From Actinomycetes bacterium (lineage in GTDB: Bacteria > Auribacterota > JAJCYG01), in NCBI GenBank assembly GCA_029263055.1, contig JAJCYG010000058.1, forward strand, positions 3,587 to 67,586: a stretch of DNA of 64,000 nucleotides. The letters run 5' to 3'. The notes under the pieces are model-generated. The model worked only from the letters and a program-made list of their open reading frames with translations, had not been told where the DNA came from and searched no databases. The translations under genes were made by a program, and so were the position numbers. This document shows, one piece after another, positions 1-33,031 of the stretch (its first letter is position 1; each line of letters begins with the position of its first letter).

Positions 1-3000
1 TAAAAGTAAAGGGGCTCACAACAAAACTCATAATTACATAGAGGTAGAACATTGAAGACAAAACAACTCCTCCACCCGTATTAAAGAACATCAAACTCAA
101 CACCGTTGGAACAGCCCATATCAGCACAGCTATAACTTCAAAAGGAACTTTCCTTCCGGTAACGTGCCAGAGAAATACTGACAAAAGCACAAGAGCTGGA
201 GCAATTAACAAATAAGGTGACAGTGGGGCAAGAGGAAGCAAGGCAAATAACGGCAGAGAAACAAGTAGCCCTAAACCAAAAATCCCTGTTAATGTCTCCC
301 ACGTATAAGACTCTGTTCCTTGATCTTTAGCGGCTGTAACCCAAGCACCAGCCTCTTTTAATCCTTTTCTTAATCCTTCAGATTGATTCGCAATTAGAGT
401 GGTCCAATAAAAGAAGCCCCCTTCTAAGAAAAGAAACTTTAACCATTTTAAGGTTCCATCAAAATAACCATTCCTCTCCCAAAATTGAGCCAGTGAGAAG
501 ATACCAATCGCTTGAGACATACCCCAACCCGCAATAATCATATAAGAAGGAAGCACAGTAAAAGGGTTGGCTCCAATAACCAAAGCACCAACAATAAACG
601 TTATAATGGCAGGAATACTAAAGTAATGAACAATCCCATAAAAAGCTAAGTTAAAGAGAAGGTCAAACTTATAGGCAAATGAGACATGAGGACTCGCCAT
701 TAAGAGTTCAAAAGCACGACTCGCTTGAAGTTCTCCACGAGCAGCTCCTTGTGCCCATTTTGCAGGTGGCGTTGCATACATTGAGAGTAAGGTCTCTTCC
801 CCTTCTCCAAATTGAAGGCGATCTTCATAGCCTCCATGGCCCCCATTAGCAATAATAGTGGCATAGCCTAATAAGTCTTCTGAAATATGAGAAGGTTGAA
901 TTCCATCATAATCCATCAAAAGTTTAGTGCGGAAAATTCCGTTATGCCCATAAAAACCAACCGCACCTACTTTACTTTTTAAGCGAAGCAAACCACCCCA
1001 AAAACTATTAACCGCTTCAGTCGCCACACGAGTTTGACGGTTATATGGTTCATTAAAAATATACTGACGAAATTGCAACACACCCAATTTAGGATCTTTA
1101 TTAAAACGATCTAAAACTTGAAGCAGCTTACGGCCATCTTCTAAACGAATCTCAGTATCTCCATCAAAGAACATCACCGTGTCCCCACGCACATATGGCA
1201 TGGCAACAGCTAAAGCCTTTGCTTTAACACTTCCTCCACGCTTACCAGCTCCTTCACCTAAGTCCATACTTCCATAAACCCAAGCAAAGTTAATATCATG
1301 AACCAGAACATGGCCTAATTGAGCACGAGTTATATGCTGTTCAAATCTATTTAAAGCTTCCTCATCTATTTGTTTCTCAAGTTTTTTAATAAGAGAATCC
1401 CAAACATCACGCAAACGGATTTCAATTGCTTCGGCTTGAATTTCTTTGTTAAAAGCAGAGCCAGCAAAACCATCCTCTGTAAGAATGCCATTTTCAACCC
1501 ACTGCTGCTTCACTTCATCAATCAGTTCTGACTTGCCAATCAAATTTAGCGCCTCTTGCATATTTGTCCAAAGATCTGCGGCGAAATCCCATTGCCTCCC
1601 TCCATGTGGATTTGGCAGATTCGGATCTTGATCCAAAGGTTTTTTAAAGAAGGAGTTTAAACTGGCCCCACCCACAGACCATAAGATTTGAAATTTTTCT
1701 TTAGCTTTTGCTTCGACCATCTTTTTCTGTTCTCGAGTCAACTGATCTAAAGAAGTTTCTCCCGGTAAAAAATCAAACATAGCTGCTTCCATATACGCTT
1801 GTTTCACGCGTAAGAAACCAGTATAGGTTGTCTCTAACATTTGCAAACGATCGTTAGCCCAATCTTCAATCTTTCGAGTTAGAATAAGAGCTTGCGCTTT
1901 TTCTTCTTCAGACTCTCCTTCAAACGGAGGCAAACTCACACCATAAGGTCGCTCCATATAACCGTTAAGAAGACTCATTTGAGCAGGTGTAGCCCAGCCA
2001 TTTTCTTCAGCCTGATCTAATAAGTTAGAAAACTCTCCCCGATACCCCCCTGTCACTAATTTAAAGAGGCGGCTCTCACCCGAAGAACCATCTATCATGT
2101 TTAAAGCCGTCCAACTATGGCGAAAATTATCAATACTTGGAATCAAAAGAGTTAGCGATGGAAGGTTTTCCCACTTGGGTCTATCAGGAAGTTTGTTTTT
2201 TCTTAAATGGGCATTGGCCCAGAATTTTATTCGATCACGGGCTTCTTTATTTACAATGTCAACCAAGGCTTGAGCTTTAATCGCATCATCTGAGTTCAGT
2301 AATTTATCTTTTTCCTCAGAGGTCAACTTATAAGAGGTATACATATCTTTAATTAAAGAGTTATATTCCCACTCAACACGTTTAAGCTTATCAGGGTCAT
2401 CACTAAACTCTTCTTTTAACATTGACCACATCTCGTTTAACGCACCTGCTTTGGTAAAACGATTTAGAGCAAACCCACCAAACAATATGGCTCCATAAGC
2501 ATATAACGTATATTGGCCATATTGCCAAACTAAGCCTAAAATTCCTGATGTTGTTAGACTTTGCGAAAGACCCCAAATAGTTGAAACATATGCCAATCCA
2601 ACGACAACTAAAGACAAAGCTAAAAATGTAACACCTATTTTTAAAATGGAAGGCCGCTCTGTTGTTTTTATTCGAGCTTGACGCTCTGAAAGATCCATAA
2701 TACCAAAGGCCGAAACCAAACCACCCAAAGTCCAAGTTGAAGCAAAATAACTTAAGATTAAAAAGAAATAAGCGAGTAAAGCAGAAACACCAAATAAAAT
2801 AGCACCAGAAATAACAGAAACCATACTGTCCTGATAGATTAATTCTAAATAAGGAACGACTCCAGCTAACCAAACCGGCATAGCCACTCCAAAGTTCCAA
2901 AGGACCCAAATAGCAATCGAGCTAATCCAGAAAAGAAGGCCGGCTGCAGAAGTCTCACCTTTAACTCGAGCGGAAAGAGCTAAACGAACCAGCAAATTCA

Positions 3001-6000
3001 AACCTAAACCAGCAACCATACCTAAAAGGAGGGAAGAAATAACAGGAAAAGCAAACACCCCAAGCGCAATAACGGCAGCAACACTTCCTAGAGCAACAAT
3101 GAAAAAGTTTCCTGTTTTTGAAAGAGGGAGAAGCGTTTTATTAAAATCAAGTAAAATGGTTCGAGTATAGACAATCCAATTAGCAAGAGGAACTCGTTCA
3201 CCAATAAACTTAAGCCCTTTGATCAACTGAGGGAAGCGAGCACTTGCTTTGACTGTTCTTGGTTTTAAATTAGGATTAAAGGCAACGTCTGCTTTACCTA
3301 AAGCGGCTTGAATAGAGTGAACCAGTTCATTTACTATCGCATAACGAGGAAGTTTACTTCCTTTTGCAATTGCTCCTTCAATCTCTTTTTGAATTCCTTT
3401 TACGGCATCCTCGTTCATATCAGGATTAAGACTTTTAATTTCTCCGATCATTTTTTTAATCCTTTTAGAATCAAGATTAGGACGACGGATTTCAAAGATT
3501 AATTCAACAATTCCCCTCACATCAGGATGAGCAATTTGTATCGGTTCAATAAGAACAGCTATTTCTTCAGCAAGGTTCCTATCTAATCTAAGGGAATATT
3601 GCTCAATACTGTTTGGATCAAGATTGAGGTCCTTTGGATCAATGCCAATATCTGAAACTAACTCTTTAATTTTATCTGGATCTAGTCCTTGTTCTTCTAA
3701 CTCAAGTTGTTTTTTATTTCTATCTCGAAAATACCGAAAAAGAATAGAGACATCTTCAGGCATGAACACATTTCTACGAAGCAAAGAAGCGGCTTTATCG
3801 CCTGCCATGACCTTTGGAATAATTGATTGAGTCTGCATCATCATATAAAAAACATTACGGTAAGCTAAAAGTTTTTTGGCAAAGACAGCACTCTTATCTG
3901 CAAAAGCCAGTATTTCTTCATTGGTTAAGGCAGCGCGCTCACCTAAAAGAACCCGCTTTTCTTCATCAATGGCTGCAGTAAAAAGCATAGCTTCATCAGT
4001 TAAGTATTCAGCCATTTGAGTTGATCCAAAATGGCCTAAGAAACGCATAATGGCAAAACGCACTACATAACGCTGTAAGAGAACAGGTTTTTGCCCTCCT
4101 AAGATATCAATTAAAACTTTTTTCTCTCCATTTTCTTCATATCCATTCCGATTCCAACGGACCCAGGCATCATTTTTAAAGAAGAGGGTCATACCTTCTA
4201 CTTCATTATCTCCTAAACCAATTTCGCGAACCCACCGTTCCATTTCAGGTATCAAGGTTGCTTTAGTTACATCCTCCGGACGAATTCTCTCATCAGGAAT
4301 GACACGTTGTGCTGGCTCTTCTTTTGGCTTGGATGTTTTTGCGAGCAAGCTAAATAAAGCTCCAAGCGCAGCAATCACACCCGCAATCAAATAACCGATC
4401 CAATCTAAAATAGAGGTTTCCTGTTTTGGTGAAATTGATTGGTCCCAAGGACGGTCGTATTTTTCCCAATTGTCGGCTAATTCATCGAGATCATTTTGAA
4501 CTGAAGCTTGATACTCATCCCAAGGAATAGGTAAAGGATAACTGTCTAAACTATATTCACTTGAAGTTCCATCCGCATTAAAACGAAACACTCGCTCTGT
4601 TCCATCTTCCATATCTTTTTCCCAAAGAATCAACCCCCCATCTTCTTGGCGAACCCCTTGATACAAACGGCGCACTTGACCGCCTTTATGACCCAATTCA
4701 GGATTGTCATTTTCATAAACTAAAAAGCGCGGAATATTTAATGAATTAAAATAGGTCCGTCCTTTCCAAGTTGTTTGAAATTTATCTGAAGAGACGTCGG
4801 CAAAAACATAAACACGGTAACGTTGTCCATCAGATCTAATCGCTTCATCATAGTTAATATGTTCTCCACCTTGAAAGCGCCACACTCTAAAATGCTTGGT
4901 TCCATAGGCATCTTCAAATAAAAAGTCAGTTGTTCCAACAATGGCACCACGAGAATCTTTTAAATAACTAAAACGCCCTTCACGGCCTGCTACTTCAGGC
5001 GGCAACGTCTCTTCAGTAAAAAAGTTACCCACCTCATATCCATCCGTTAAATGAGATTGAACTAATTCATAGTCACCCGCTCCACTAAACTCTCCACTAA
5101 TTGCGATCACAGGAAGGCTTGATGTCGCACCTTGCAACATCACGTTTGAAAAACGGACTTCGTCTCCTGTCGCATTCCCAACGCCATTACCATATCGAAT
5201 TCCTATTTGAATCAAATGAGAGGTATCAACATTGTGGTTGGCAGCAAGATCTGATAAGGAGACTGTTACTCGGTGCCAAGCACGTCCTTCGCTATCGCGA
5301 CCTGCTTCTGGAAGCTCTGAAATAGTATACGGATCTGTAATGTGGGTGGCTCGATTAACATGACCACTTTTATCTGTAAAGGTAATAGCAAAGCGTTCAT
5401 TTCCAGTATTGCCACGAACAAAGAAAGACAATGTTTCATAACCTGAGACATCATAGTGGGTGATATCTTGAGCTGGTTTCAAAGGACGTACATAAGAATA
5501 AGTTTGACCCAAGTTCATTCTAAACCAAGCATAGTCGTCTGAAAGCTCTAAACTTCTGACCATAGGTTGTAATAATTTAGTTGCTGGGCGCCCTCCAACA
5601 AACTGATAGACACCCTGATTCCTTAAACGAAAGACTCGGTCTCCAAGCTCATTATGGACCGTCGATCCATTTTGCATTTCTAAAACAGGTGAATCAAAAT
5701 TTTGTTGCAAATCATAAAATAAAACGCGACGCGTGTTACTCTGCGCATCAGTCACTTCTTGGCGTACTTGTGTCGTTGACTCTGTCTGACCTGCTGTTGT
5801 AACGGCCGTTGAAATAATCCCATCAGGATGAGCTTTCAAATAAGCTGGATCGTCTGTTGTTGTGACTGCATTTGTTATTTGAAAAGGGTTCTCAGTATTT
5901 CCATATTGGTTCACTGTGGTTCTAGTTTCAATTAAAGTGTATTGATTCTGTTGATTAGGCAAAGAAGAATAGGTCTTTGACTGCACTTGAATCAAACGAC

Positions 6001-9000
6001 CATAAGCATCATACACTGAAATTTTCAGTGGCAATCCGCGCAAATCCCTGCTTTGCACTTCAGACTGAATCACTTGAATACGCCCATTAGGTAAGTAGCT
6101 CTGCGCAAAAACTGAAACCACATTATTAACGGTTGTGGCACCCGATGTATTACCTTGGTATTGAATTTGACCTTGAGCATTGACTCGAATACGAGTTCCA
6201 TCCATTTGCATAGGGAAAAGACGGTTTAAACCATTTTGCTGAGTGAGTAAAATAGAATGGCCTTGGGCACCTGTCTCGTAAAGAGGACGTTCTGCAGGAG
6301 AACCATCATAATGTACCACCACTTCATTTCGATAAACACGTTGGAGCAACATCCCTCGAGTACGCACTTCAATTTTTGTTGCCCTACCTACCGTAGAACG
6401 TTCTGTAATTTCAATACTTCCATCAGACAAAACGCGATGACTGTATGTGGCGATCACATTATCAACACCATTAACTCTTGTTCCACGCGCTCTTAATCGA
6501 TCTTGTTTATAAACTGGAAGGGAAATACCTAATTGAGAATTATATTCATAAACTAAAGTTGTATAAGTATCGCTTTCTTCTATTAAACGGCCTAAAGAGT
6601 TTAGTTTTCGGGTTGATTGTTTTTGAGTTAATACATTTCTAATCTGAAGAACCATCTCTCCGTTTGGAAGAAAGGTTGCTGTACTGGTTTCAAAACGGAT
6701 ACCCCCTGATGCATTCGCAGGATCAACATCAATAAAAGTGGTTCGGCCTGTCTCCCGACCTTGTGTATTATAAGTAACCGCTGTACGGGATTGATAACGA
6801 ATCACATCTGAAGCGTTAATACTACCTGTATTAACCTCAACTACGCGGTCTAATCGGGTGTCACGAATGTCAGTTTTAGCGGTACGATTCAATTCATTTA
6901 TTTCTGTAACAGAAAGGCGATGATTGGCTGCATCATAATTAAAACGGTAAGTACTCACCACTCTATTCAATTGAGCACTACGTGTCTCTTCAGGAATCTC
7001 AAATCCATTTCGAATCACATATGTTGTGGTAAGATCACCCACTTGACGGCTTTTTAAATAGCCTAAGCTATTACGTACTTCAACAACCGTTAAACCGGCA
7101 TTATCTAAACCTGTAGAAGTAATGTTCCCATTTGTGGCAACAGTTGTTCCACTGTAAACGATTAAAACATGATCATGACCATTTCGTGTGGTGCCTCTTC
7201 TTCCTGTTCGGTCAATGACTATTGTTGGACGACTCAATTGTAACGCTGAATCATAAACATAAATTGTTTCTGTTTCTCTAGAGTATTCACGCACCACATG
7301 CCCTAATGCATCTAAAAGCTGCAAGCTTTTAGCTCCTGTAATGCTCGTTACTTCAATAGCGCTCCAACCTTGTCGGCTATTCAAATCCCAAGTGTTCATA
7401 TCAACACCCCAACGAAAAAGCTGATCGCGGTCTGTCACAACTTCTGTGCGCATTTTAACCTGAGAGGTTGCTGTGCGAGCACCGGTAGTTGAATCAACAT
7501 TGATATAAACAACACCTCCTGTTGACACTCTTACAGTACGACTATTAAGTGTTAGATCGATATATTGCAATTCTTCGCGTTCTTGAATCTCAACTTGTAA
7601 TGCTGTTTGAACAGCAGCTTGGGAGTAATCAAAATTTTGAGTCGTATCAAAACCAGAACGGTTAAATGTTCCTGTTAGTCGAACTAAAACATCTCCCTCT
7701 GCGTTCAATGTCTCTTGAGTCACACGACCTGTCATCCAATCAAAGGTCCATTTTGTGTTGCCATTGTTAGTGACATAAAATGTTTGAGTCACATTATCAA
7801 CTGAGGAATAAACAAGTGCTCCGTTACGATCAACACCCGTTGGAACAATCAATGTGCGGCCTTGAGGAGTTGCTGTATCGTTTGAGCGCACATATAAAGG
7901 ATGGGTCAAGCCATGTGAAGGGTGATAATAAATATCGATTTTCTTATTTGTGTCAACTTGACGAACCACGCGATTATCGCGAAGGTATTCTTGAGTGACT
8001 AAGGTTGGATTAAAAATATTAGCTTTATTAACAATCACATCGCCTGTAGCGGCATCCCGTCGATTTGCTGGATTAGCGTCCAACCAATAACGGTTCATTC
8101 TTTCTGAATGCCAGTAAGGAGGACCTCTTCTTAAGTTAGCTTCCACAAATTCTAAGTCACGGTTAAATTGATTGAGCTCTTCTAAACGTTGTTCAAGACG
8201 CGTTCTATATTGCTGAGCCATTCCATCACCAAAAACTAAGGTGACATAAACAGTGGTTCCATTCGACTGAACATATTCAATGTTGGCATATTGATTGCGA
8301 ATCGCTTCTGCCATCTTTAAAGGATCGGTGCGCAACCAATTCATCACTTCAGTCACTTTCATTTCTCCCAAATTAAGACCAAAGAGCTCTCCGACAACTA
8401 ATCCATTTGGAACCAACTTTCCATTTTGATCTGTCATAATCACCCCTGAAAGGTGATGCATTTGCTGAAGTCTTAGAATATTAGATAAAGTTCCTGCATC
8501 AGCTCTTTCTAACGCTACCTGCTCTAACGCTCCACTCAAACCATGCTCAATAATGATGCGTGTTCTCACATTATGAACCGTTCCATCTTGTTGGACAAAC
8601 GGAACGTCTGTTTCAAACCAACCACGCGCTAAAATACGATGCTGCTCATGCGCACTAAAGACAGGGTTCCCATTTGCATCGACTCGTTCAAACTGAGCCA
8701 CTAAAAAGTCGAGCATGGCATTGGCGCCACTCATATCAGGAATTTTAGTTCCAGGGTTTGCAGGATCATCTATTAAAGGACGCCCTAAAATCACATGCTG
8801 CATTGATGTACTCGTTGAATTAAGAGCATTTCCTCGTATGTCTAAAGGTTGACCCGTAGAGCTCACAAATCGAATCGCCCCTCGCTCAGCCACTTGTGCT
8901 TCCACAGCAGCACGCTGACCTTGCAAACGATAACTCGCAACACTTTGATCAATTTCGTCATAACTTGAAATCAAGGTCCACGTGTAAACTTGTCCACCCT

Positions 9001-12000
9001 GCTCATATGAAAAAGCATTAATTCGTTGGTCATAGAATAAAAATGTTTTGCCTTGAGCCAACGCAACCTCAGCGGTTGTAGGACGCAAGTGTTGATTTTG
9101 TGGAAGAGCTTGTTGAGCTGGCGTCATTCCATTCCAACCTGTTACTCTAGTTAACGCGGTTAAAATCGCTTGCACATCTTCGCTTGGACGATCACTTGTT
9201 TCATTAACAAAGATTTTGCCTTTACCCATTTCCACTTCAACAGCTGCTCTAGAACCAAGAGAAACTTGATTGGTTTGGGACCAAGACGGAACTTCTCGCA
9301 CAGCTGCTGGATAACCATTATAAAGAGTAGAAGGATTCCCACTTGTAAGACGTGAGGTATACCAAAACTGGCCATCAATTTGATAAGGATTATAATGACG
9401 TTGAGCCATTCCAAACATCGCAGTTGATGCCACTGAAGCAGGCGCATCTAAAACTCGTTTGTCTGAAAAAGAGTAATACCGAATACCGGTTGTTGTCGCA
9501 ATTGGCATCGCCATTCCACCACTTGAAGAGCGAACCGCTAAACGCTGTATCGATGCTTCTAAAGTATCTGCACTCCTTCTCCAAGAAGAAGACCAAGAGT
9601 CCCTTGCTGCTGCACGATCAGAAGCACTAAGCCGAGTGTCATTAGCCACGACATTCATCAAATAACCTTCATAAGCACGCATCGCTAATAAAACATAAGA
9701 AGAAGATTCCACAAAAACCGCCCGTGTCCGTTCCGTGCCATTACCAATCGCCACACGCCCTTCTCGATTTGTTGAATCAAAACCGGTCACAGATTGTCCA
9801 TTATGAAGAACTGAAACAAAAGCGCCGGTGGCAGGATCCATTAAACGTCTTAATATCTTCGCTCCAAGATAAGGGCCACCACCAAAAAAGAGCTTATTCT
9901 CATTTTTTGAATCTCTCATATGTTCTAAAATTTCAGGGCCAATCGCAGTTAGAGCAATGGCTTGAACATCTGTGGCATAACCCTCGTTGGCAACAATAAT
10001 TCCATTTCTCTTATTTGTACCTGCATAAAAATAATGTTCATCCGCATCCCACATTTTATTTGATAAAAAACGTAATACTGAAAGAGCCGCATCACGATAC
10101 TTACTCTCTTCAGTGACTGTATGCATATTTGAAAAGAGGCGAAAAGCTCCCATCATCTCTTCTGTGGAACTGACTCCATTTGCTTTATCTTGCCAAATCA
10201 CCCCTTGCCAATTTTCATCCTCTGTTTCCATACGTTGAATCAAGCCATCAGCAATATTGCGCATTTCACTTAATGCATGCGCAGCATTTGTATTTGTCAT
10301 TAAATCATCTAAATTTCCATTTTCAGCATCCCATAAAAGACGGTTTCGCTCATCCCTAACATCTTCTAAATCATTAATCCAGTCAGGGCCTAATTGATCC
10401 ATATAATCGTCAATATCGCCGCTATAAATATTACTTCGGAGATTTGCTAGATTATCACCACTCTGATAGTTTTCTTGATAAGAACGCAATATATTAGGAT
10501 GGCGCTGAAACATTGATTGCATATAAGCTAATCCAATAAACGCATTCGGCCCCACATGAAATTGTCTCTCTGCAATATCATTGGTTCCTACGTTGATCGC
10601 ATTTGCATATAAAGGATTACTTGTTTCATCTGTAGAGACTTCATTTCGTTTGAGTCCACCTCTCAACCGATAGATTGACTCCATCACACGATTCCCCATA
10701 TGCCCATCATTTAAAGATTGAAAAAACATAGAACGAATCGCTTGGTCATACGTTGAACCCCATGCTTGCCAATTAGCGGTTTGAGGTCCAGCTTGATTCG
10801 GAGCAAACATAAAACTAGGAACCAAGTCATTCGCCCCATTGCGTGTTGCCCGCAAAAAAGTTCCCATTTGAAGCGGATTGACTCCGACGCCATTTGTTGG
10901 ATCAAAGCGATAATAGCGACCTGGAGTGACTTGTAAAATAGCTCCTCCGTTACGCCCCATTAAACGGTGATAAGCATCATAGTTATCAATCTTTTCTTGA
11001 ATGTCGTGCAGGTTTTCTTGTAATGCTTTAAGCCCTGGCACCCAAATAAATTCAATGCCATTGTCCCCCATAATTCCATATACAGGAACCATGGAATGAC
11101 TTTCTGTTTGTTGACGTGCATCACGGTCTGATTCTGGAATCGGAATGTGCGCATACCCTAAAAGAACTTTTTGTCGATCTAAAACATTTGCCTGTTGTTT
11201 TGTTCTAATAGAGACAACATTGCCTCCGACAAAAGTACGGCCCAATTGCTCAAACAAACCTTGACTACTGTCAGTGCGAGCCAACACACCATAGTTTCGT
11301 AACCCCTCGACATAAGTTGTGTTGTCTCGAATCGATCCAAAAATTTGTAATGGAAAACCAAACAAGTTAACAACCCAAGCTCCAGCTTGCCAAACATCTG
11401 GGGCTTCACGGTAAACAGGGCGATCTAAGCCTGGCACCAATCGACTTGCTGATTTAATGATCGAAGCCAAACTAGGACCAATTCCAATAGGTAAAGGCAT
11501 ACTTTCAAAAACACCTTTTGTGGTACTCACTTCACGAAAGACCCGGGCAAAACTTGTTAAATAAAGAAATCCGGCTGTGGTAGGTGTTGGCATCACAGAA
11601 TCCCCACCAATATCTCCCACAAAAAACTTTGAAATTAAATCTGAAAAAGAAGAAGTATCTCTCGCAAATTCTCCAGCTTGGCCGCCACTTCCATCTGGTC
11701 GCAAACGAGCTAATTTAAAGTTAGAGTCATTACTTGTATTTGAAAGAAGAACTAAGTTCACCATTAAAGAAGAGAAAAAATCAATACGTGCTGTCACTTC
11801 ACGGTGACGGTGCCAATCAGTATGAAACAAGGTCACAACAACTTGATCTAATTCATCTTGAGTCACGGTTGTTCTTGGATTGTTATTACTGTCATAACCT
11901 GTAAATTCTTTTTCATAGACCGCAGCAGCCATGGCATAAATAAACTGATGAATCTCTTGAGCATCGGTTGGTGTCATACTTAAATTAATTGTAGAAAGAA

Positions 12001-15000
12001 CTCTATCTGGGATTCCTGAAATACCGGTTGCTCCACGTGTTTCATTAATTTTATCTAAAAGCGTTCTAGCTTCAGTTCGAACACGCGTTTCAGCTTCTTC
12101 CATGGTTTCATCATCTTGTTTGTTCACATTAATGACAGGCAATGGGGTTGGTAAATTCTGACTTTGAACAAAAATTTGATAGGCTGCTCGAATTCCTGTT
12201 GGAATGGCACGGTTGATATACAAACCACTTCCAGTTGGATCAACAAAAAGAGTCACATTAAAAACAGTTGAAATAGTAGAGACCACTAATTCGCCATAAA
12301 GGTTTTCTAAATTCTTTTCAGCATCCATGAGTTCAACTAAAGTGCGAAAAGCTCCTACTCGGTTTTCAACCAATTCTCGGCGCAAAATATTACGACCAAA
12401 AATAATTTGATTACCAAGCTCAGCTTCAGTAAAAAGCCCACGATCCCCACTATAACTAGCATCACTCACTTTAGAGTTAGCGGTCGCAACCGTTGTATTA
12501 ATAATACGCATCACTCGTTGAGGATTGGAATTGACTTCATTTGATTTTAAACGGCGCCAACTGCTCCCTTCTCGTACAAAAAAACCAACCAATTGTTTTT
12601 CAGGAACTTCAACGGTATCTCCATTTTCATTCACTTGGCTCAACATATTGAGCTGACCACTTGAATTACGCACATTCATATAAATTTCAGGATAACCATA
12701 TTGGTCCACAACCGGTTCATACATAGGATCACGATCTGAAGCATCACGCATTGAATTTGGTAACCATGACTCAGGGTCGGGTTGAATCTGACGGGTCTCT
12801 GTTCGAAGATCACGCTCTTCATGCACATTGGCCAAGCCACTCATCCGGCCATTTGTCATGGTCACTTCAGCAAAGGCATAGTAATTATGATTTTTTTGAA
12901 AATTAGGAACCAGTGTGGCCATATCCCCTGTTCGAACTCGTTCTTGAAGTTGAGACAAGGACATGCTGCGGGGAATTCCACGGCTAAGGACTTCACGAAT
13001 ATTAAACTCTGACATCCGCTCGGCTCTGTATGCTTGAGCATTACGCAGATTAGCTTGAATCGCATAATCGCCTGACATCACAAGAATTTCTTCATTTAAA
13101 ACAGGATCGTTATACCAGACTTGAAAAGGAATATTGTTTTGACTCATATGCCTCAACTCAGCTGGGTTTGTGATCTGCTCTCCTGCTGCTTCTCGATTAG
13201 GCCGCTCCACCTCAGGATAACGACGATAAACAAATCGGTTTTGAGGAATGCTTGCCATTAAATCAGAGGTTTCTTGAAAACTGTTTGTAATTTGGCGACC
13301 ACCCGGAAGGTTGATGTGGGTCACAGGCTCATAGCGATGTCCCTCTCCCATGCGAACAAGTCGATGAGCCACACGTGATAAATCAGTACGCAATGTTTGA
13401 CGGCGTAACGCCACTTGATAATCTTCTACAGCCAAACGCGCACGATCTTGACGGGCCTTCACACCAAATTCAAAAATAAGACTTTGGTCACTTCCTCTCC
13501 AATCTGTTCTTGCAAAGAAAGCAGGACGGGCTTGTTCTCCCATCACAAAGGTTAATTTTTCTCCTGAGGCAGCTCGGTTTATGGCACCACCAAAACCAAG
13601 TAAATCAAAAATAACATTCCCCTCATTATCATAAACATTTACCTGGCCAGGATTCGTTTGATACCAATTTTGAAAGTCTTGAGGCGAGCTAAAAACCAAC
13701 GTCTCAAATTTATTTGTGACAGTATTAAAACGATAAACCGTACTTTGATACGTTTGCGGAAGAACAGCTGTGGTGATTGGTTGACCATTACGAATATGCG
13801 TCGCAATTTCAGCACGATTGGTAATCACATTACCACGCGCATCTCGAACTTCTAAAATTTCAGCATGATCAAAAAGCCAATCTTCTAGATTGGCCAACGT
13901 GGCAAAAGCCATTGTTTCATATGTGTTGGTTGAAGGATTATAAAAGGTAACCGCGTCTCCATGGGTCCGAGTAGGAACAACCACTGTTTCAGCACCAGCC
14001 ATCACACTTGATTGAGAACGATCCATTAACACACCAAAGTAAGTTGTATTAAGTTGATTAAAGGTCGCACGCATTCGCGTCGAAGCATCCATGGATTGGC
14101 CTAAAAGATCGATTTTTAAACGCTCGGCTGCTTGTAAATCTCCAAGTCCTTCCCGCGTTTCTGTAATCTGCCGAAGCTGATCTCTAACAATGTTATCAAT
14201 ATCAGCTTGAACCGTTGCCGCAATAGGAGGAGCCGTTGTTGGACCCACTTGAGGTTGAACCGGTTGCTGTGGTTGAGCAGGCTGTTGCCCTGGTGGAGTC
14301 TGCTTTGGTCCCACTTCAGGTTTGTCACCAGGTTTATCATCAGGCGCATCTTGCCCCATAGCCATTGGCGCAAAAATACCAACTAAAGCCAAACCTAATA
14401 AGGCTGTACTTAAAACACGAGAGTGAACACTAAAGTAACGAAACATGCCAAAAACGCCACCACTCACACGCCCTTTAGCCATTCCAAAAAAGAATTCTTT
14501 AATACTTCCTAAGAAACCCCACTGCCTCTTTTGAACTTCATGAGAAATTAATGATTTTAAATGACCGTCAAAAAGAGGGTTCTCTTCAACCAGCTTGTTT
14601 AATCGAACCTTTAAGATTTGTTGTTTCGCAGATAACCCGCGAGCAATCGCTCGATCATATTCTTTAAAAATAGTGATGACTTCAGCTTCTAACTTATTAG
14701 CACGCGCTTGTTTTTCTTTTAAATACTCTCCCGCCAAACGAATTACTTTTTCATTCAACGTTTCAAGATCAAAGTTTTCTGCTCGAATAAAAAGAGTTCC
14801 GCCCCATTCGCCCACTCCATTCTCACCAAAACTTAACGTTTCTGCACGTGGGTCTGAGCTTGAAATAATTTGTAATTTGAGCTCTGGATCTTCTGGCAGA
14901 TAAGGCGATTCCATTGCCCAAAAAGGATAGGTTGTCACCATGTCTTGAAGAGATTGCTCACGTACTTCTTTGGCTCGTCTATTAATCTTACGTGTTGCTT

Positions 15001-18000
15001 TTCTCACACGACTTGAAAAACCAGTCACACCTTCTAAGATCGCCATCGGAAACAACACTTGATCTGCAGGTAAAATCGTCTTTTCATCAATTTCAATCGA
15101 CTGCATCAAGTAAGCAAATAACGTTCTTTGTATTTCAACTTCTGAAGCATTTTTTCGAACCAAATCTCTAAGCAGATCCACAAACTCCAAACGCAATGTT
15201 TGAAAATGTTTTTCAATTTTAGCCGCATTAGAATTTTCGGGCGAAACCACAGGGCGCATATAAGCACGCCAAAACTTTTCAATCCCTTCAAAATCACCCA
15301 CACCCTGAGAGAGTTGAATAACCATAATCGCTTCAACACGTTTGTCGGTAAGCTCTTTTCCGGCAATATTATTCTTAATGCGAATTTGATTTAATTGATA
15401 GACAGCCACAACGCGTTGTAAAAAGAGCTTTGCTTCTTGGGCATTTTCTTGATCTGTTTCGTATTGTAGATTGCGCACATAATAGTCGAGAAGGTCTGAA
15501 GCATTTTCTTCACCAAATGGGAGCGTCACATCAAACCAAGGATAAGCTGTTTGCACTTCTTCTACTAAACCTGGATCAACTAAAGAAAGAAGTGTTCGAA
15601 TCGTATCTAAATCATCCAGCTTCTCTGATTCAACAGCTTCATTGTATGTCTTTAAAAAATTGTCTGATTCAAAGATCTCAATATTTTTTCTGGCCTCTTG
15701 GAACATTCCATAAAGAACACCCGCAATATATTGAGCCCGGCTCACAGCTTTACCACGATCACTCTGTGACAAGGTCAAAGCACGCTCTTGGCGCCAACGA
15801 ATAAAACGAATAAATAATCCTGAAAGTCCTACAGCTAAAAGAGCTGAATAATAGATCAAACCAAAATCAGGGGTACCGGTAGCACCCAATGTAAAAGGGA
15901 GCAGGACAAACGCTAATAACGTAGAGGCAAGCTGAACCACAGCAGGCGTCTTCAACGGAGGAAGCTTAGGCAAAGAAGTGCTTCTTGCTCGGCGCAAATC
16001 ACGTTGCGTTTCTGCCACTTCAGTCACTAAGCGCTGAAAAGTGTCATCCCCCTCTTCTCTACCCGACTGAGAAAGACTAATCACATCCCAGTCAATACCA
16101 CGTAAAAAATCGTGAGCAGGCTCTAAATCATTCAGTCCAAATCCATTGACAGAAGCATTCCTTGCTTTTGGCAAATCTGTTTCAATTTTTGATAATGCAT
16201 TATTCCAATCAACCTCTTCTATTGGAGTTAATTTGGGTGCTTCAGGTTGTTTAAATACTTTGGCTATTTTAGCCTGCTTTGCATCTTCTATTCTTTTAAC
16301 AAAGTCAGCTTGATCTGCCAGACGTTGCTCTTCGCGTTCTTTAGCCTGTTCAGCTCGAACATCTTCAGCAATGGCTTCTTTCTTTGCCGTTAATGCTGCA
16401 GCATTTTCTCGACGGGTACGTGCCAATCGGGCCCGGTTTTTTGCTTCCCACTTTAGCTGAGCTAAATTACGCGCCACACTTGCTTCTTCTTTAAGGTCAC
16501 GCTCATTACCGTAAACAAATTGCAAGCCATCAATGGAACGGCTGGCAACCGCACTCTTAAAGGCTTGTTTTCCTTTTGCCACTAAAAGAGCCACTCGTTT
16601 CTCATCTGCAGTTGTAGATTTTGAATGTAGTAGAAAGCCTGCAGGATAGTGAGTGGCTGAGATTTTTCTAAAATAAGCGTCCCAATAACGACGCACTTTG
16701 TAAGGAAGGTTCACACCGGCCTCGTTAATGACGGCGTCTATTTCTAATTGAAGAGCCAGTTCAATGGCTGAAGCATCTTTGCCTTTTTCTTGAAGCAAAT
16801 AAGCTTGATAACCTAAATATTCTAAGATCAATCGCACGGTGTCTGCTTCACGTATCTGTGCACGCACTTCAGGGTTATTTCCTAAGATCACATCTGAAAA
16901 AAGATATGAAGGGGTGGCTAAACGGTTTCCGGTTCCAACTAAGTAGCGTTCTAAAGGAGATAAGCTTGGGGTCATTAACGAAGCATACAAATCTTCGTCC
17001 ATGGCTTCGGTTAAGCGAGGGGCAATCACAAGGTGTGAGGTTTCAATTGCTTCAAGTTGTTGTCTTAAACCATCAGTATGAAAACCACCTGTAATTAAAA
17101 CCGCAATTTTTTTGTTCTGATCTTTTAAAGCTTGTAAGGTATTTTCAATTAAAGCCACATCTCGTTTTTGAGCCACTTCATAAAACCGGTTAGCAGCCTT
17201 AAGAGAACGTGCAATTGATTTATCTTTAATAAACTTGAGAATAGCTGTTTTTTGCTGATTAAACTCTTCGAGTTGGGAGCGGGTCACTTCTAATTGGCTC
17301 ATGGCGTGAACCAGTGCCAACCATTCTGACTCTTGTTGTACTTGCTTTTGCTCATCGGTTATTAAAGTAGCGGCCTTTACTTCTTCAGATAAGGCTTTTA
17401 ATTCAATCATGGCCACTTCAGTACGCAGTTCTTTTTGTAATTCTAAAAATTGAACTAATGTTTCAAGGTGCTGAAAACGGCCATTGATTTTATAAAGATG
17501 AGAGAGACTTAAAAGACGTGAATGATATTCTAATGATTCAATCTTACCCAAACGAAACTCTAACGACATTTTAATAAGCTGCCCAAGGTCTTCTTTAACC
17601 AAACGTTTCTGTAGCTTTTCTAATAAAACATCTCGTTCTCGGGCCACTCCTTTAGGACTAATGGTTTTTTGCATTTCTAAGGCTCTGGCTAAAACATTCA
17701 GTTCAGGATACGCTTGCGCATCTAAAGAGACTTCTAACTCAAGCCACTCTAAGTATTGAACCAAGGAAAGCTCTTGCTCGTAAAGGCGATGTGTTTGGCG
17801 ATCAAAAGCTAAAAACGCTTCAGGCAGCACCATCTCTTTAAGCATTTTATTATCTGCAATCTTTTTGTCTAATACAGGAGCGGACCGTTTACGGGCTTGA
17901 GCCATTTTAAGATGAGCTTGAATATTTTGGTTATACAGGCCCGCTGTTTCCACACCATAAAGCACAGTTGCAGTTGTTCGGTTCATGGCAAAAAACTCAG

Positions 18001-18481
18001 CGGCGTTTACTTTCCCCTCTTTTAAATAAGATAGGGAGACTACTTCTTTAGCTTTCGCATCTGAAAATTGACGAAAGTAACTTGGGTCAACCTTGCCTTG
18101 TGCCCCTTCTAAACAAAGCAACACATCATTGGCATGACCATTAAAGCCCATATCAAAAAGACGATTTAAAATTTTATCAATGTTTTGTTGTGCCGCAAAG
18201 TTGGCATGGGAATCTTGGATATGAATGACATAAGGTTTTGATTGATTTTGATCAGTGCTCGTCGATAAATAAGCTTGCTTGAGTTGACCTAGTTCAGGTG
18301 GAAGGTCAAATCCTTTGAGAGGTTCAAAAAGAGAAATTTCGTTTGTTATAGGGGTTTTGATTGAAGGGCTGAATTGAGTGATTCCTTGTGCTTGGACTGC
18401 TTCTGCATAAAGAAAAGAGAGAGAAATAGCAACGGCTACAACTCGCACCCCAAACCTTTGTCTTCGAACTTCATGAAACAT
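1..18481 (-). CDS. Giant multidomain membrane protein, >6160 aa, 3' end outside window: signal peptide, ChaN/TIKI-like module, (alpha/alpha)6 glycosidase-like domain, YD-like repeats, CBM-like domain, FKS/GT48-like glucan synthase
   Basis: ATG at 18481 with GGAGG RBS, reading MFHEVRRQRFGVRVVAVAISLSFLYAEAVQAQ. The same frame was open in every segment I translated down to position 2 (..LSSMFYLYVIMSFVVSPFTF). It is absent from the ORF track, consistent with no in-frame stop in the window. Motifs: IQDSHANFAAQ (~18210), ITGGFHTDG (~17085), STYDQA (~10750), DVSGYETLSFFVRG (~5430), IEDWANDRLQML (~1850), FFDGD (~1165), FYGHNG (~945), ISEDL (~880). Confidence 0.92.
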   Translation of the reverse strand, partial: MFHEVRRQRFGVRVVAVAISLSFLYAEAVQAQGITQFSPSIKTPITNEISLFEPLKGFDLPPELGQLKQAYLSTSTDQNQSKPYVIHIQDSHANFAAQQNIDKILNRLFDMGFNGHANDVLLCLEGAQGKVDPSYFRQFSDAKAKEVVSLSYLKEGKVNAAEFFAMNRTTATVLYGVETAGLYNQNIQAHLKMAQARKRSAPVLDKKIADNKMLKEMVLPEAFLAFDRQTHRLYEQELSLVQYLEWLELEVSLDAQAYPELNVLARALEMQKTISPKGVARERDVLLEKLQKRLVKEDLGQLIKMSLEFRLGKIESLEYHSRLLSLSHLYKINGRFQHLETLVQFLELQKELRTEVAMIELKALSEEVKAATLITDEQKQVQQESEWLALVHAMSQLEVTRSQLEEFNQQKTAILKFIKDKSIARSLKAANRFYEVAQKRDVALIENTLQALKDQNKKIAVLITGGFHTDGLRQQLEAIETSHLVIAPRLTEAMDEDLYASLMTPSLSPLERYLVGTGNRLATPSYLFSDVILGNNPEVRAQIREADTVRLILEYLGYQAYLLQEKGKDASAIELALQLEIDAVINEAGVNLPYKVRRYWDAYFRKISATHYPAGFLLHSKSTTADEKRVALLVAKGKQAFKSAVASRSIDGLQFVYGNERDLKEEASVARNLAQLKWEAKNRARLARTRRENAAALTAKKEAIAEDVRAEQAKEREEQRLADQADFVKRIEDAKQAKIAKVFKQPEAPKLTPIEEVDWNNALSKIETDLPKARNASVNGFGLNDLEPAHDFLRGIDWDVISLSQSGREEGDDTFQRLVTEVAETQRDLRRARSTSLPKLPPLKTPAVVQLASTLLAFVLLPFTLGATGTPDFGLIYYSALLAVGLSGLFIRFIRWRQERALTLSQSDRGKAVSRAQYIAGVLYGMFQEARKNIEIFESDNFLKTYNEAVESEKLDDLDTIRTLLSLVDPGLVEEVQTAYPWFDVTLPFGEENASDLLDYYVRNLQYETDQENAQEAKLFLQRVVAVYQLNQIRIKNNIAGKELTDKRVEAIMVIQLSQGVGDFEGIEKFWRAYMRPVVSPENSNAAKIEKHFQTLRLEFVDLLRDLVRKNASEVEIQRTLFAYLMQSIEIDEKTILPADQVLFPMAILEGVTGFSSRVRKATRKINRRAKEVREQSLQDMVTTYPFWAMESPYLPEDPELKLQIISSSDPRAETLSFGENGVGEWGGTLFIRAENFDLETLNEKVIRLAGEYLKEKQARANKLEAEVITIFKEYDRAIARGLSAKQQILKVRLNKLVEENPLFDGHLKSLISHEVQKRQWGFLGSIKEFFFGMAKGRVSGGVFGMFRYFSVHSRVLSTALLGLALVGIFAPMAMGQDAPDDKPGDKPEVGPKQTPPGQQPAQPQQPVQPQVGPTTAPPIAATVQADIDNIVRDQLRQITETREGLGDLQAAERLKIDLLGQSMDASTRMRATFNQLNTTYFGVLMDRSQSSVMAGAETVVVPTRTHGDAVTFYNPSTNTYETMAFATLANLEDWLFDHAEILEVRDARGNVITNRAEIATHIRNGQPITTAVLPQTYQSTVYRFNTVTNKFETLVFSSPQDFQNWYQTNPGQVNVYDNEGNVIFDLLGFGGAINRAASGEKLTFVMGEQARPAFFARTDWRGSDQSLIFEFGVKARQDRARLAVEDYQVALRRQTLRTDLSRVAHRLVRMGEGHRYEPVTHINLPGGRQITNSFQETSDLMASIPQNRFVYRRYPEVERPNREAAGEQITNPAELRHMSQNNIPFQVWYNDPVLNEEILVMSGDYAIQANLRNAQAYRAERMSEFNIREVLSRGIPRSMSLSQLQERVRTGDMATLVPNFQKNHNYYAFAEVTMTNGRMSGLANVHEERDLRTETRQIQPDPESWLPNSMRDASDRDPMYEPVVDQYGYPEIYMNVRNSSGQLNMLSQVNENGDTVEVPEKQLVGFFVREGSSWRRLKSNEVNSNPQRVMRIINTTVATANSKVSDASYSGDRGLFTEAELGNQIIFGRNILRRELVENRVGAFRTLVELMDAEKNLENLYGELVVSTISTVFNVTLFVDPTGSGLYINRAIPTGIRAAYQIFVQSQNLPTPLPVINVNKQDDETMEEAETRVRTEARTLLDKINETRGATGISGIPDRVLSTINLSMTPTDAQEIHQFIYAMAAAVYEKEFTGYDSNNNPRTTVTQDELDQVVVTLFHTDWHRHREVTARIDFFSSLMVNLVLLSNTSNDSNFKLARLRPDGSGGQAGEFARDTSSFSDLISKFFVGDIGGDSVMPTPTTAGFLYLTSFARVFREVSTTKGVFESMPLPIGIGPSLASIIKSASRLVPGLDRPVYREAPDVWQAGAWVVNLFGFPLQIFGSIRDNTTYVEGLRNYGVLARTDSSQGLFEQLGRTFVGGNVVSIRTKQQANVLDRQKVLLGYAHIPIPESDRDARQQTESHSMVPVYGIMGDNGIEFIWVPGLKALQENLHDIQEKIDNYDAYHRLMGRNGGAILQVTPGRYYRFDPTNGVGVNPLQMGTFLRATRNGANDLVPSFMFAPNQAGPQTANWQAWGSTYDQAIRSMFFQSLNDGHMGNRVMESIYRLRGGLKRNEVSTDETSNPLYANAINVGTNDIAERQFHVGPNAFIGLAYMQSMFQRHPNILRSYQENYQSGDNLANLRSNIYSGDIDDYMDQLGPDWINDLEDVRDERNRLLWDAENGNLDDLMTNTNAAHALSEMRNIADGLIQRMETEDENWQGVIWQDKANGVSSTEEMMGAFRLFSNMHTVTEESKYRDAALSVLRFLSNKMWDADEHYFYAGTNKRNGIIVANEGYATDVQAIALTAIGPEILEHMRDSKNENKLFFGGGPYLGAKILRRLMDPATGAFVSVLHNGQSVTGFDSTNREGRVAIGNGTERTRAVFVESSSYVLLAMRAYEGYLMNVVANDTRLSASDRAAARDSWSSSWRRSADTLEASIQRLAVRSSSGGMAMPIATTTGIRYYSFSDKRVLDAPASVASTAMFGMAQRHYNPYQIDGQFWYTSRLTSGNPSTLYNGYPAAVREVPSWSQTNQVSLGSRAAVEVEMGKGKIFVNETSDRPSEDVQAILTALTRVTGWNGMTPAQQALPQNQHLRPTTAEVALAQGKTFLFYDQRINAFSYEQGGQVYTWTLISSYDEIDQSVASYRLQGQRAAVEAQVAERGAIRFVSSTGQPLDIRGNALNSTSTSMQHVILGRPLIDDPANPGTKIPDMSGANAMLDFLVAQFERVDANGNPVFSAHEQHRILARGWFETDVPFVQQDGTVHNVRTRIIIEHGLSGALEQVALERADAGTLSNILRLQQMHHLSGVIMTDQNGKLVPNGLVVGELFGLNLGEMKVTEVMNWLRTDPLKMAEAIRNQYANIEYVQSNGTTVYVTLVFGDGMAQQYRTRLEQRLEELNQFNRDLEFVEANLRRGPPYWHSERMNRYWLDANPANRRDAATGDVIVNKANIFNPTLVTQEYLRDNRVVRQVDTNKKIDIYYHPSHGLTHPLYVRSNDTATPQGRTLIVPTGVDRNGALVYSSVDNVTQTFYVTNNGNTKWTFDWMTGRVTQETLNAEGDVLVRLTGTFNRSGFDTTQNFDYSQAAVQTALQVEIQEREELQYIDLTLNSRTVRVSTGGVVYINVDSTTGARTATSQVKMRTEVVTDRDQLFRWGVDMNTWDLNSRQGWSAIEVTSITGAKSLQLLDALGHVVREYSRETETIYVYDSALQLSRPTIVIDRTGRRGTTRNGHDHVLIVYSGTTVATNGNITSTGLDNAGLTVVEVRNSLGYLKSRQVGDLTTTYVIRNGFEIPEETRSAQLNRVVSTYRFNYDAANHRLSVTEINELNRTAKTDIRDTRLDRVVEVNTGSINASDVIRYQSRTAVTYNTQGRETGRTTFIDVDPANASGGIRFETSTATFLPNGEMVLQIRNVLTQKQSTRKLNSLGRLIEESDTYTTLVYEYNSQLGISLPVYKQDRLRARGTRVNGVDNVIATYSHRVLSDGSIEITERSTVGRATKIEVRTRGMLLQRVYRNEVVVHYDGSPAERPLYETGAQGHSILLTQQNGLNRLFPMQMDGTRIRVNAQGQIQYQGNTSGATTVNNVVSVFAQSYLPNGRIQVIQSEVQSRDLRGLPLKISVYDAYGRLIQVQSKTYSSLPNQQNQYTLIETRTTVNQYGNTENPFQITNAVTTTDDPAYLKAHPDGIISTAVTTAGQTESTTQVRQEVTDAQSNTRRVLFYDLQQNFDSPVLEMQNGSTVHNELGDRVFRLRNQGVYQFVGGRPATKLLQPMVRSLELSDDYAWFRMNLGQTYSYVRPLKPAQDITHYDVSGYETLSFFVRGNTGNERFAITFTDKSGHVNRATHITDPYTISELPEAGRDSEGRAWHRVTVSLSDLAANHNVDTSHLIQIGIRYGNGVGNATGDEVRFSNVMLQGATSSLPVIAISGEFSGAGDYELVQSHLTDGYEVGNFFTEETLPPEVAGREGRFSYLKDSRGAIVGTTDFLFEDAYGTKHFRVWRFQGGEHINYDEAIRSDGQRYRVYVFADVSSDKFQTTWKGRTYFNSLNIPRFLVYENDNPELGHKGGQVRRLYQGVRQEDGGLILWEKDMEDGTERVFRFNADGTSSEYSLDSYPLPIPWDEYQASVQNDLDELADNWEKYDRPWDQSISPKQETSILDWIGYLIAGVIAALGALFSLLAKTSKPKEEPAQRVIPDERIRPEDVTKATLIPEMERWVREIGLGDNEVEGMTLFFKNDAWVRWNRNGYEENGEKKVLIDILGGQKPVLLQRYVVRFAIMRFLGHFGSTQMAEYLTDEAMLFTAAIDEEKRVLLGERAALTNEEILAFADKSAVFAKKLLAYRNVFYMMMQTQSIIPKVMAGDKAASLLRRNVFMPEDVSILFRYFRDRNKKQLELEEQGLDPDKIKELVSDIGIDPKDLNLDPNSIEQYSLRLDRNLAEEIAVLIEPIQIAHPDVRGIVELIFEIRRPNLDSKRIKKMIGEIKSLNPDMNEDAVKGIQKEIEGAIAKGSKLPRYAIVNELVHSIQAALGKADVAFNPNLKPRTVKASARFPQLIKGLKFIGERVPLANWIVYTRTILLDFNKTLLPLSKTGNFFIVALGSVAAVIALGVFAFPVISSLLLGMVAGLGLNLLVRLALSARVKGETSAAGLLFWISSIAIWVLWNFGVAMPVWLAGVVPYLELIYQDSMVSVISGAILFGVSALLAYFFLILSYFASTWTLGGLVSAFGIMDLSERQARIKTTERPSILKIGVTFLALSLVVVGLAYVSTIWGLSQSLTTSGILGLVWQYGQYTLYAYGAILFGGFALNRFTKAGALNEMWSMLKEEFSDDPDKLKRVEWEYNSLIKDMYTSYKLTSEEKDKLLNSDDAIKAQALVDIVNKEARDRIKFWANAHLRKNKLPDRPKWENLPSLTLLIPSIDNFRHSWTALNMIDGSSGESRLFKLVTGGYRGEFSNLLDQAEENGWATPAQMSLLNGYMERPYGVSLPPFEGESEEEKAQALILTRKIEDWANDRLQMLETTYTGFLRVKQAYMEAAMFDFLPGETSLDQLTREQKKMVEAKAKEKFQILWSVGGASLNSFFKKPLDQDPNLPNPHGGRQWDFAADLWTNMQEALNLIGKSELIDEVKQQWVENGILTEDGFAGSAFNKEIQAEAIEIRLRDVWDSLIKKLEKQIDEEALNRFEQHITRAQLGHVLVHDINFAWVYGSMDLGEGAGKRGGSVKAKALAVAMPYVRGDTVMFFDGDTEIRLEDGRKLLQVLDRFNKDPKLGVLQFRQYIFNEPYNRQTRVATEAVNSFWGGLLRLKSKVGAVGFYGHNGIFRTKLLMDYDGIQPSHISEDLLGYATIIANGGHGGYEDRLQFGEGEETLLSMYATPPAKWAQGAARGELQASRAFELLMASPHVSFAYKFDLLFNLAFYGIVHYFSIPAIITFIVGALVIGANPFTVLPSYMIIAGWGMSQAIGIFSLAQFWERNGYFDGTLKWLKFLFLEGGFFYWTTLIANQSEGLRKGLKEAGAWVTAAKDQGTESYTWETLTGIFGLGLLVSLPLFALLPLAPLSPYLLIAPALVLLSVFLWHVTGRKVPFEVIAVLIWAVPTVLSLMFFNTGGGVVLSSMFYLYVIMSFVVSPFTF

Positions 18482-33004: not shown

Positions 33005-33031
33005 ATTCACGTCCACATCACACAAAAAAGT

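Follow-up and report, generated by a model that had tools for sequence, protein, structure and literature searches.

Here, we describe a giant gene at one end of a 64,000-nucleotide (nt) stretch of bacterial DNA (NCBI GenBank assembly GCA_029263055.1, bases 3587–67586 of contig JAJCYG010000058.1, or C58; hereafter the window, meaning this whole stretch). The gene lies on the minus strand, comprises 7,377 codons (~22 kb) and ends with a stop 22 codons beyond the end of C58. On balance, and with modest conviction, we favour reading it as one intact, riboswitch-controlled gene for a giant membrane protein that makes and handles a surface glucan. Giant genes of Omnitrophota-type bacteria have been published, and their function and control are essentially obscure. 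The present gene is of a manageable size for study, and it is complete, conserved and free of repeats; it offers three testable handles: an 85-nt aptamer with a terminator platform, a putative FKS1-like synthase, and an N-terminal head domain that recurs on hundreds of long proteins, has been modelled with confidence and shows a handful of conserved residues.

The minus-strand frame 2..18496 contains zero stops on translation, comprising 6165 codons from its first possible start (TTG) and 6160 from the ATG at 18481–18479. We take ATG 18481 as the start because a GGAGGG sequence (18494–18489) precedes it by 7 nt, while the TTG overlaps GGAGGG. The G+C content of 41% gives, by simple arithmetic, ~6 stops per 100 random codons, and an open run of 6160 codons is therefore not due to chance. 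An earlier note on this DNA had proposed one open minus-strand frame of at least 6160 codons, with a ribosome-binding site (RBS), a signal peptide and a true end outside the window. These claims were borne out: 2..18481 holds neither an in-frame stop nor a frameshift, GGAGGG is well placed as an RBS, the N-terminus is signal-peptide-like, and the stop was found by extension. The note had also called the gene invisible among short open reading frames (ORFs). It is indeed missing from the default ORF list, and the remaining ORFs inside 1..18481 are all at most 168 amino acids (aa); however, that list drops frames running off the sequence end, so the absence is an artefact of listing and says nothing about the DNA itself. 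Once frames with open ends are admitted, four minus-strand ORFs of at least 200 aa appear in the window: 2..18496, 18783..22040 (1085 aa), 22127..33046 (3639 aa) and 33128..62998 (9956 aa).

The assembly to which the window belongs measures 2.95 Mb (124 contigs, 96.8% completeness, 1.9% contamination). Outside the window, the frame stays open for 3586 bases more, up to base 1 of C58, giving 7355 codons. Two short contigs, C86 and C104, each carry at one end the same 141 bases with which C58 begins; the assembly graph forks here. Followed into either contig, the gene frame reaches a stop after another 22 codons (the two versions differ at 2 residues), which completes the gene at 7,377 codons. 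Beyond the gene end, the two continuations diverge completely: on one fork contig lies an ORF of at least 1134 aa that encodes a UDP-glucose (uridine diphosphate glucose) pyrophosphorylase domain (PF01704, E 7e-8), on the other an ORF of at least 896 aa without Pfam match. If the former is truly downstream, it would fit UDP-glucose as the substrate of the synthase described below.

The closest database relative, P0002, is a 7,809-aa protein from another assembly that is collinear with the giant protein over its whole length. Identity is 51% over residues 6–828, 37% over 1154–3641, 31% over 3650–4953, 48% over 5086–6254 and 45% over 6793–7355, and both proteins end alike ('...LLISA'). In addition, two DNA runs from a single study (labelled biofilm metagenome) yielded contigs that tile window positions 1–18700 without any substitution or indel row; the assembly probably derives from one of these runs. 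An assembly artefact or decaying pseudogene could be suspected from the fragmentation into 124 contigs, from the graph fork inside the last 22 codons, and from one contig of run X1 in which position 7679 is followed, after 4 extra letters, by 11629, so that 3,949 bases are skipped. However, the shorter side of that joint has 21 letters and other contigs cover the skipped part, on which grounds we took the skip as spurious. A chimera or pseudogene would also not stay open for 7,377 codons, nor match P0002 in order from end to end at 31–51% identity. Such an origin is very unlikely, and we treat the gene as single and intact.

The region between the 1085-aa gene and the giant gene contains, in this order, a promoter-like site, an aptamer, a terminator-like hairpin and the RBS:

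18644..18672, minus strand: sigma-70-like promoter candidate, TTGACA-17 nt-TATCAT with TG before the -10 element (consensus match only, 11/12), 11 nt upstream of the aptamer
18549..18633, minus strand: cyclic diguanylate (c-di-GMP) class I riboswitch aptamer, 85 nt (Rfam RF01051 and RF03167 matches)
18531..18564, minus strand: intrinsic-terminator-like hairpin of 11 pairs with a loop of 5, plus U run (terminator scan match)
18489..18494, minus strand: RBS GGAGGG, 7 nt before the ATG (read from the sequence)
1..18481 (frame 2..18481), minus strand: codons 1–6160 of the 7,377-codon gene (translation, contig extension, P0002 alignment)

The aptamer scores 65.5 bits with RF03167 (cut-off 59) and 64.8 bits with RF01051 (cut-off 35), the latter at full length (model positions 1–87), and it carries the conserved GGCAAACC and GACGCAAAGC segments of the RF01051 class. 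Where the GGC-variant model has GACGCGAAgC, the aptamer reads GACGCAAAGC, with the canonical A in place of G, at a position that we take, by presumed nucleotide numbering, to be the one distinguishing c-di-GMP-I from the GGC variant. A GGC-variant riboswitch with another ligand was rejected on this A, and we read the leader, by its sequence, as belonging to the canonical c-di-GMP-I class. The 5' arm of the terminator is formed by the last 16 nt of the aptamer (its own 3' strand). There is no separate anti-terminator, and when the whole free leader is folded at minimum energy, the terminator hairpin appears instead of the second helix of the aptamer. Because the aptamer 3' strand doubles as the terminator 5' arm and the free leader folds as a terminator, we predict that ligand binding prevents termination, which would make the element an ON switch. 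The opposite arrangement, in which the riboswitch is an OFF switch or senses another cyclic dinucleotide and the gene is expressed at low c-di-GMP, we consider possible and rather doubtful. Rfam clan competition did put the GGC-variant model first, by 0.7 bits, but the canonical A speaks against that variant, and a terminator arm made from the aptamer itself is the layout of an ON switch. By eye, two further giant genes of this genome have leaders with the same terminator/aptamer layout.

This genome contains four c-di-GMP-I-type matches (one below cut-off), all directly upstream of long ORFs (7,377, 9,956, 3,612 and 1,836 aa) that open with signal-peptide-like starts; three of the four bear the head. 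The sub-threshold match precedes the 9956-aa head-bearing gene at the far end of the window:

63008..63179, minus strand: c-di-GMP-I-like element with a ~90-nt insertion in its second helix (39 bits, E 9.8e-8, cut-off 59; 34.6 bits with RF01051, cut-off 35)

The listed ATG of that gene (62998) falls inside a hairpin-plus-U-run behind the riboswitch-like element, a hairpin not flagged by our simple terminator scan; the real start may be an ATG 19 codons downstream that opens a better signal peptide. Elsewhere, on contig C45 (101302–101388, minus strand), a c-di-GMP-I riboswitch of 52.5 bits stands ~20 nt before the 1836-aa ORF, which has a signal-peptide-like start and no head. No terminator is visible in its leader, and control may act on translation.

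The protein encoded behind the leader was scanned over its whole length with Pfam and NCBIfam, with almost no result. A Kyte–Doolittle scan found the N-terminal segment plus ~15 further hydrophobic segments, including a pair at residues 6333–6381. The parts that we could delimit in the window are, from N- to C-terminus:

18383..18481, minus strand: signal-peptide-like N-terminus, residues 1–33, with a basic stretch, hydrophobic residues 11–29 and VQA-QG (hydropathy scan)
16802..18379, minus strand: head, residues ~35–560, a putative Tiki/ChaN/erythromycin-esterase-type alpha/beta core split by a helical insertion
15809..15955, minus strand: hydrophobic pair, residues 843–891, one or two membrane spans (Kyte–Doolittle scan)
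14354..14428, minus strand: membrane span, residues 1352–1376, flanked by basic residues on its N-terminal side and by an acidic Pro/Gln-rich linker on its C-terminal side (hydropathy)
4400..14353, minus strand: predicted outer arm, residues 1377–4694, ~3,300 residues, non-repetitive (no internal repeat at E <1e-5)
9347..10177, minus strand: segment of the arm, residues ~2769–3045, with relatives in four genomes (31–33% identity, E 1e-10 to 1e-11)
5204..5473, minus strand: candidate beta-sandwich resembling carbohydrate-binding module family 30 (CBM30), residues 4337–4426 (PF21582, E 2.3e-5, 24.8 bits, cut-off 27)
4343..4399, minus strand: membrane span, residues 4695–4713 (hydropathy scan)
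2591..3103, minus strand: first membrane bundle, residues 5127–5297 (hydropathy scan)
647..2284, minus strand: FKS1-like processive glycosyltransferase domain related to glycosyltransferase family 48 (GT48), residues ~5400–5945 (phmmer, profile, motif columns)
17..646, minus strand: second membrane bundle, residues 5946–6155 (hydropathy; partly aligns with FKS1 1372–1498)

The glycosyltransferase domain lies between the two membrane bundles and is the one enzyme that could be identified in the chain. An exhaustive phmmer search of 1.84 billion representative proteins gave 116 matches at E ≤1e-3, 48 at ≤1e-10 and 11 at ≤1e-30, with direct matches at E 1e-15 to 1e-28 to proteins over the Pfam Glucan_synthase cut-off. 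A Pfam scan of 16 phmmer matches found Glucan_synthase (PF02364) in 8, over the cut-off in 5 (44.8–108.3 bits), and Glyco_trans_2_3 in 10; two showed no family and one HEAT repeats only. A 13-sequence profile (the gene core plus 12 phmmer matches, members that are themselves FKS-like included) reached yeast FKS1 at E 3.8e-29, GSC2 at 1.3e-28 and BcsA at 4.4e-15, and aligns with FKS1 residues 870–1276 and 1372–1498. Taken alone, residues 5200–6400 give a weak match to BcsA (E 3e-3), in which the D-x-D, E-D and R/K-W positions line up.

The motif columns of the domain are K5755, D5773-G-D5775, E5868-D5869 and K5908-W5909. DGD and ED are thus occupied, and the last motif reads P-A-K-W where processive GT2 synthases have Q/R-x-x-R-W. 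Within the clade, P0137 and P0148 carry DAN, P0137 being labelled Njordarchaeales archaeon (Asgard group). Together with P0156, these are prokaryotic proteins of 500–960 aa that exceed the FKS/callose-synthase Pfam cut-off and have an FKS-type DAN or DxN. By its motifs and homologies, the module is a putative processive glycan synthase; it falls into a rare prokaryotic clade with kinship to GT48 and is not a demonstrated GT48 member. The clade may bear on the origin of eukaryotic beta-1,3-glucan synthases.

By the positive-inside rule and the charge bias seen by eye, we predict an extracytoplasmic location for residues 1377–4694 and a cytoplasmic one for the regions that follow residues 4713 and 6381. 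The predicted outer arm is 31–37% identical to that of P0002 and has hardly any Pfam matches. The four genomes with relatives of residues ~2769–3045 belong to the same phylum. For this segment, we found weak leads only, to (alpha/alpha)6 glycosidase-like folds (cellobiose 2-epimerase at E ~1, not significant; protein atlas 0.76–0.80). The protein atlas likewise gave weak leads for residues 1377–3400 (scores 0.76–0.86), its recognition staying below benchmark, and a PDB sequence search with residues 2700–3400 returned nothing significant. The CBM30-like module recurs in four small ORFs of this genome.

Following the published proposal for giant proteins of Omnitrophota, the protein could be read as attacking prey or host cells, with an arm that binds and digests the wall of a partner cell and a glycosyltransferase of secondary importance. 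The CBM30-like module and the leads to glycosidase-like folds are in its favour, as is the link of giant proteins to adhesion and carbohydrate degradation in the available text of West-Roberts et al. 2023. Nevertheless, no glycoside hydrolase or peptidoglycan hydrolase family appeared at a useful threshold in the Pfam and NCBIfam scans of the chain, the one enzyme that could be assigned with confidence is biosynthetic, and the source runs carry the label biofilm metagenome. We regard such a role as quite improbable.

The C-terminal tail carries a candidate zincin-like HExxH module that recurs in other giant ORFs. Another property of the whole chain is its near-absence of cysteine, with 1 Cys in 7,355 residues. 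This extends to the other long ORFs of this genome: those of at least 1500 aa (n=32, the largest 19,496 aa) contain 0.10% Cys, versus 0.86% in ORFs of 300–999 aa (n=1,097, crude six-frame ORF set). The 19,496-aa ORF, on contig C42, has zero cysteine; two long ORFs, on C20 and C115, are exceptions with 1.1–2.0% Cys. Exported proteins of bacteria without disulfide-forming machinery generally avoid cysteine. The Cys poverty would fit exported, surface-exposed chains, and it could serve as a simple marker supporting the exported location of giant ORFs.

The head links the gene to its neighbours and to a much wider family. Residues ~1–560 align with the N-terminal part of the 3639-aa and of the 9956-aa neighbour, at 25–29% identity (E 1e-44 to 1e-49). 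The earlier note had seen the same head module in the neighbours of the gene; this stands for these two genes and not for the 1085-aa gene, which has no match to the head. With a head profile, 10 ORFs of this genome were found, always with the head N-terminal behind a signal-peptide-like segment, one of them only 559 aa long. Of 41 genomes of the phylum, 16 contain the head, the richest giving 38 matches. In a search limited to proteins of 3,390–10,789 aa, we found 123 head-bearing proteins, whose downstream Pfam content is highly varied and includes phosphoglucomutase, phosphoenolpyruvate (PEP)-utilising, kinase and AAA domains. An organism label is available for 21 of 120 listed head proteins: 16 Omnitrophota/Omnitrophica, 3 Elusimicrobia, 1 Verrucomicrobiae and 1 Endomicrobium. 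Elsewhere, 32 short forms (334–975 aa) were found, all of them unnamed proteins without a Pfam domain.

The head has no Pfam match, and a PDB sequence search gave nothing significant. An alignment of 23 heads showed invariant D, H, Q, E, Y, N and R residues and GGFH. An AlphaFold model (predicted local distance difference test 83.3, predicted template modelling score 0.75) has a small alpha/beta core into which ~275 helical residues are inserted. Foldseek against the PDB found no match at E ≤1e-3 for either of two models, that of the head included. The head of the 9956-aa neighbour matches PF04187 (ChaN, Tiki superfamily) weakly, at 20.8 bits (cut-off 27.7). We conclude that the head probably adopts a Tiki-superfamily fold with a conserved His-Glu-Arg-His set, residues which we take to be the catalytic or ligand residues of this superfamily.

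A head of this kind could also be a protease, and the giant chain a polyprotein or carrier that is cut by the Tiki-like head, the zincin module or other proteases, with the synthase as one cargo among several. The same head does precede very different enzyme cargo, it stands nearly alone in short proteins (500–975 aa), and the HExxH module is shared with other giant ORFs; moreover, cleavage by N-terminal peptidase domains has been proposed for giant proteins (West-Roberts et al. 2023, available text). However, protease activity of the head and of the HExxH module is putative, and the conserved domain order, which P0002 shares from end to end, is just as compatible with a single working unit. 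We judge the polyprotein reading to be unlikely, if worth keeping in view.

For the reading that we favour, a riboswitch-controlled gene for a glucan-making membrane protein, these parts would work together as follows. The 7,377-codon gene would be transcribed from its own promoter, and binding of c-di-GMP to the leader would suppress termination and switch the gene on. The product would be an almost Cys-free giant protein of the cytoplasmic membrane that begins with a Sec-type signal peptide. Its exported head, of the ChaN/erythromycin-esterase fold, would mark a large paralogous family of long proteins. Behind the head, membrane spans would be followed by the ~3,300-residue arm outside the cytoplasm with its carbohydrate-binding-like module, and a cytoplasmic tail with the zincin-like HExxH module would end the protein. 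In this way, a surface polymer of the beta-glucan type would be made and exported in response to c-di-GMP, and the outer arm may bind, trim or anchor it for adhesion or biofilm life.

Several points weigh against this reading. The sequence itself stays under the Pfam cut-offs, with 17.3 bits for Glucan_synthase (37.2 needed) and 20.3 bits for Glycos_transf_2 (23.3 needed), and the GT48 assignment rests on transitive homology because no Pfam cut-off is reached. The domain has DGD where FKS1 has the metal-independent DAN, and the DAN motif and metal independence are hallmarks of FKS1 according to the available text of PMC12715860. The polarity of the switch is deduced from folding logic alone, and the topology from a hydropathy scan and a by-eye charge bias, with residues 843–891 counting as one or two spans. 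Approximately 85% of the giant protein has no assigned fold. Finally, the pairing of riboswitch and head is rare among related genomes. RF01051 is present in 28 of 41 genomes of the phylum, and we inspected 64 downstream stretches, derived from 66 over-cut-off matches and 1 sub-threshold match. A head follows in 3 of these, all from one genome and one of them behind the sub-threshold match, whereas an ORF still open after at least 740 aa follows in 17. The link between riboswitch and long gene is therefore common and that between riboswitch and head local, and the idea that c-di-GMP riboswitches generally precede head-bearing genes in the phylum was dropped.

A bolder version of the favoured reading, which we offer as speculation and think unlikely to hold in full, would see in the gene product a self-contained RNA-switched exopolysaccharide machine made of a single polypeptide. 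Its synthase clade would bridge the GT2 cellulose-synthase-like enzymes and the eukaryotic GT48 beta-1,3-glucan synthases, and the Tiki-fold head would be a common export or processing handle of the giant-protein class. If this were true, the origin of the glucan synthases of fungi and plants could be traced to prokaryotes.

Concerning the neighbouring genes, the 9956-aa protein contains an outer-membrane efflux (TolC-like, PF02321) domain mid-chain (window 47420–47950, minus strand; 36.4 bits, cut-off 22). The 1085-aa gene (18783–22040, minus strand) has no match in Pfam, NCBIfam or the PDB, and a GGDEF-like 'GGDER' noticed by eye ~160 residues into it is unsupported by these searches. IspG is encoded 10 kb from the giant cluster, with relatives at 68–73% identity and a closest relative, P0240, at 85%; the nine labelled relatives comprise six Candidatus Omnitrophota/Omnitrophica, two Chlamydiae and one Eisenbacteria. 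P0240 and P0002 share a recorded longest contig of 151,188 bases and may be encoded together on it, like IspG and the giant cluster in this genome.

Giant membrane proteins of Omnitrophota-type bacteria are a class already described in print (West-Roberts et al. 2023, bioRxiv 10.1101/2023.11.21.568195; Nielsen and Lui 2026, bioRxiv 10.64898/2026.06.07.730766), and the gene falls into it. With the class as it appears in the available text of these preprints, it shares a very long ORF, a signal peptide, many membrane spans, mostly unannotated sequence, scattered enzyme domains including glycosyltransferases, and gene clustering (four in the window). The N-terminal regions of giant proteins are generally without identifiable domains, as the available text of West-Roberts et al. 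2023 has it. The 7,377 aa found here are far below the >30,000 aa and ≥10,000 aa of the proteins studied in those two papers. SecA-DEAD, C39, S8 and dockerin domains, reported there for most or many members, were absent from Pfam scans of the chain at E up to 0.01–1. The phylum of this genome has only 79 species genomes, so it may not be Omnitrophota in the GTDB (Genome Taxonomy Database) sense. The available text of both preprints makes no mention of riboswitch, c-di-GMP, Tiki, cysteine or ChaN, and that of West-Roberts et al. 2023, the only text searched for the term, none of 'glucan synthase'. New with respect to these preprints are the predicted RNA switch, the putative head fold, the FKS1-like synthase, and the candidate zincin-like tail module and 1-Cys chain.

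The leader compares closely with the c-di-GMP-I class (GEMM-I, RF01051), of which Vc2 of Vibrio cholerae is an example: the match is full-length, and its target here is a single 22-kb giant gene. This class is linked to membrane, motility and biofilm genes in the available text of PMC7266159. A c-di-GMP riboswitch before a giant gene of this bacterial group was not found in the literature that we searched. In its putative fold, the head resembles the ChaN/erythromycin esterase/Tiki/TraB/PrgY proteins (PF04187, PF05139). Unlike in these, a ~275-residue helical insertion splits the core, and the head is always N-terminal on long exported proteins and without a Pfam match.

As for the enzyme, the cyclic beta-1,2-glucan synthase Cgs/NdvB is a bacterial membrane protein of ~2,800 residues that carries a glucan synthase and glucan-modifying domains on one chain. 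It differs in belonging to another glycosyltransferase family and in having no head, riboswitch or 3,300-residue outer arm. Yeast FKS1 shares with the giant protein a W-A-x-x-R-x-Q region, the ED pair, a K-x-G/A-x-G segment and a glycosyltransferase domain set between membrane bundles. Unlike FKS1, the giant protein has DGD in place of DAN, no Pfam-level match of its own and a chain four times longer; Rho1-type regulation is not expected, and control would be exerted by the RNA switch. BcsA (GT2; PDB 4hg6, 4p00) is likewise a processive bacterial membrane glycan synthase with DxD and ED, and both BcsA and the giant gene would be c-di-GMP-responsive in the broad sense. In contrast to FKS1, BcsA is matched more weakly by the profile (4.4e-15 vs 3.8e-29), and the giant protein has K-W for QxxRW. 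The Pfam scan of the giant chain found no PilZ domain, and c-di-GMP would therefore act on the messenger RNA here and not on the enzyme.

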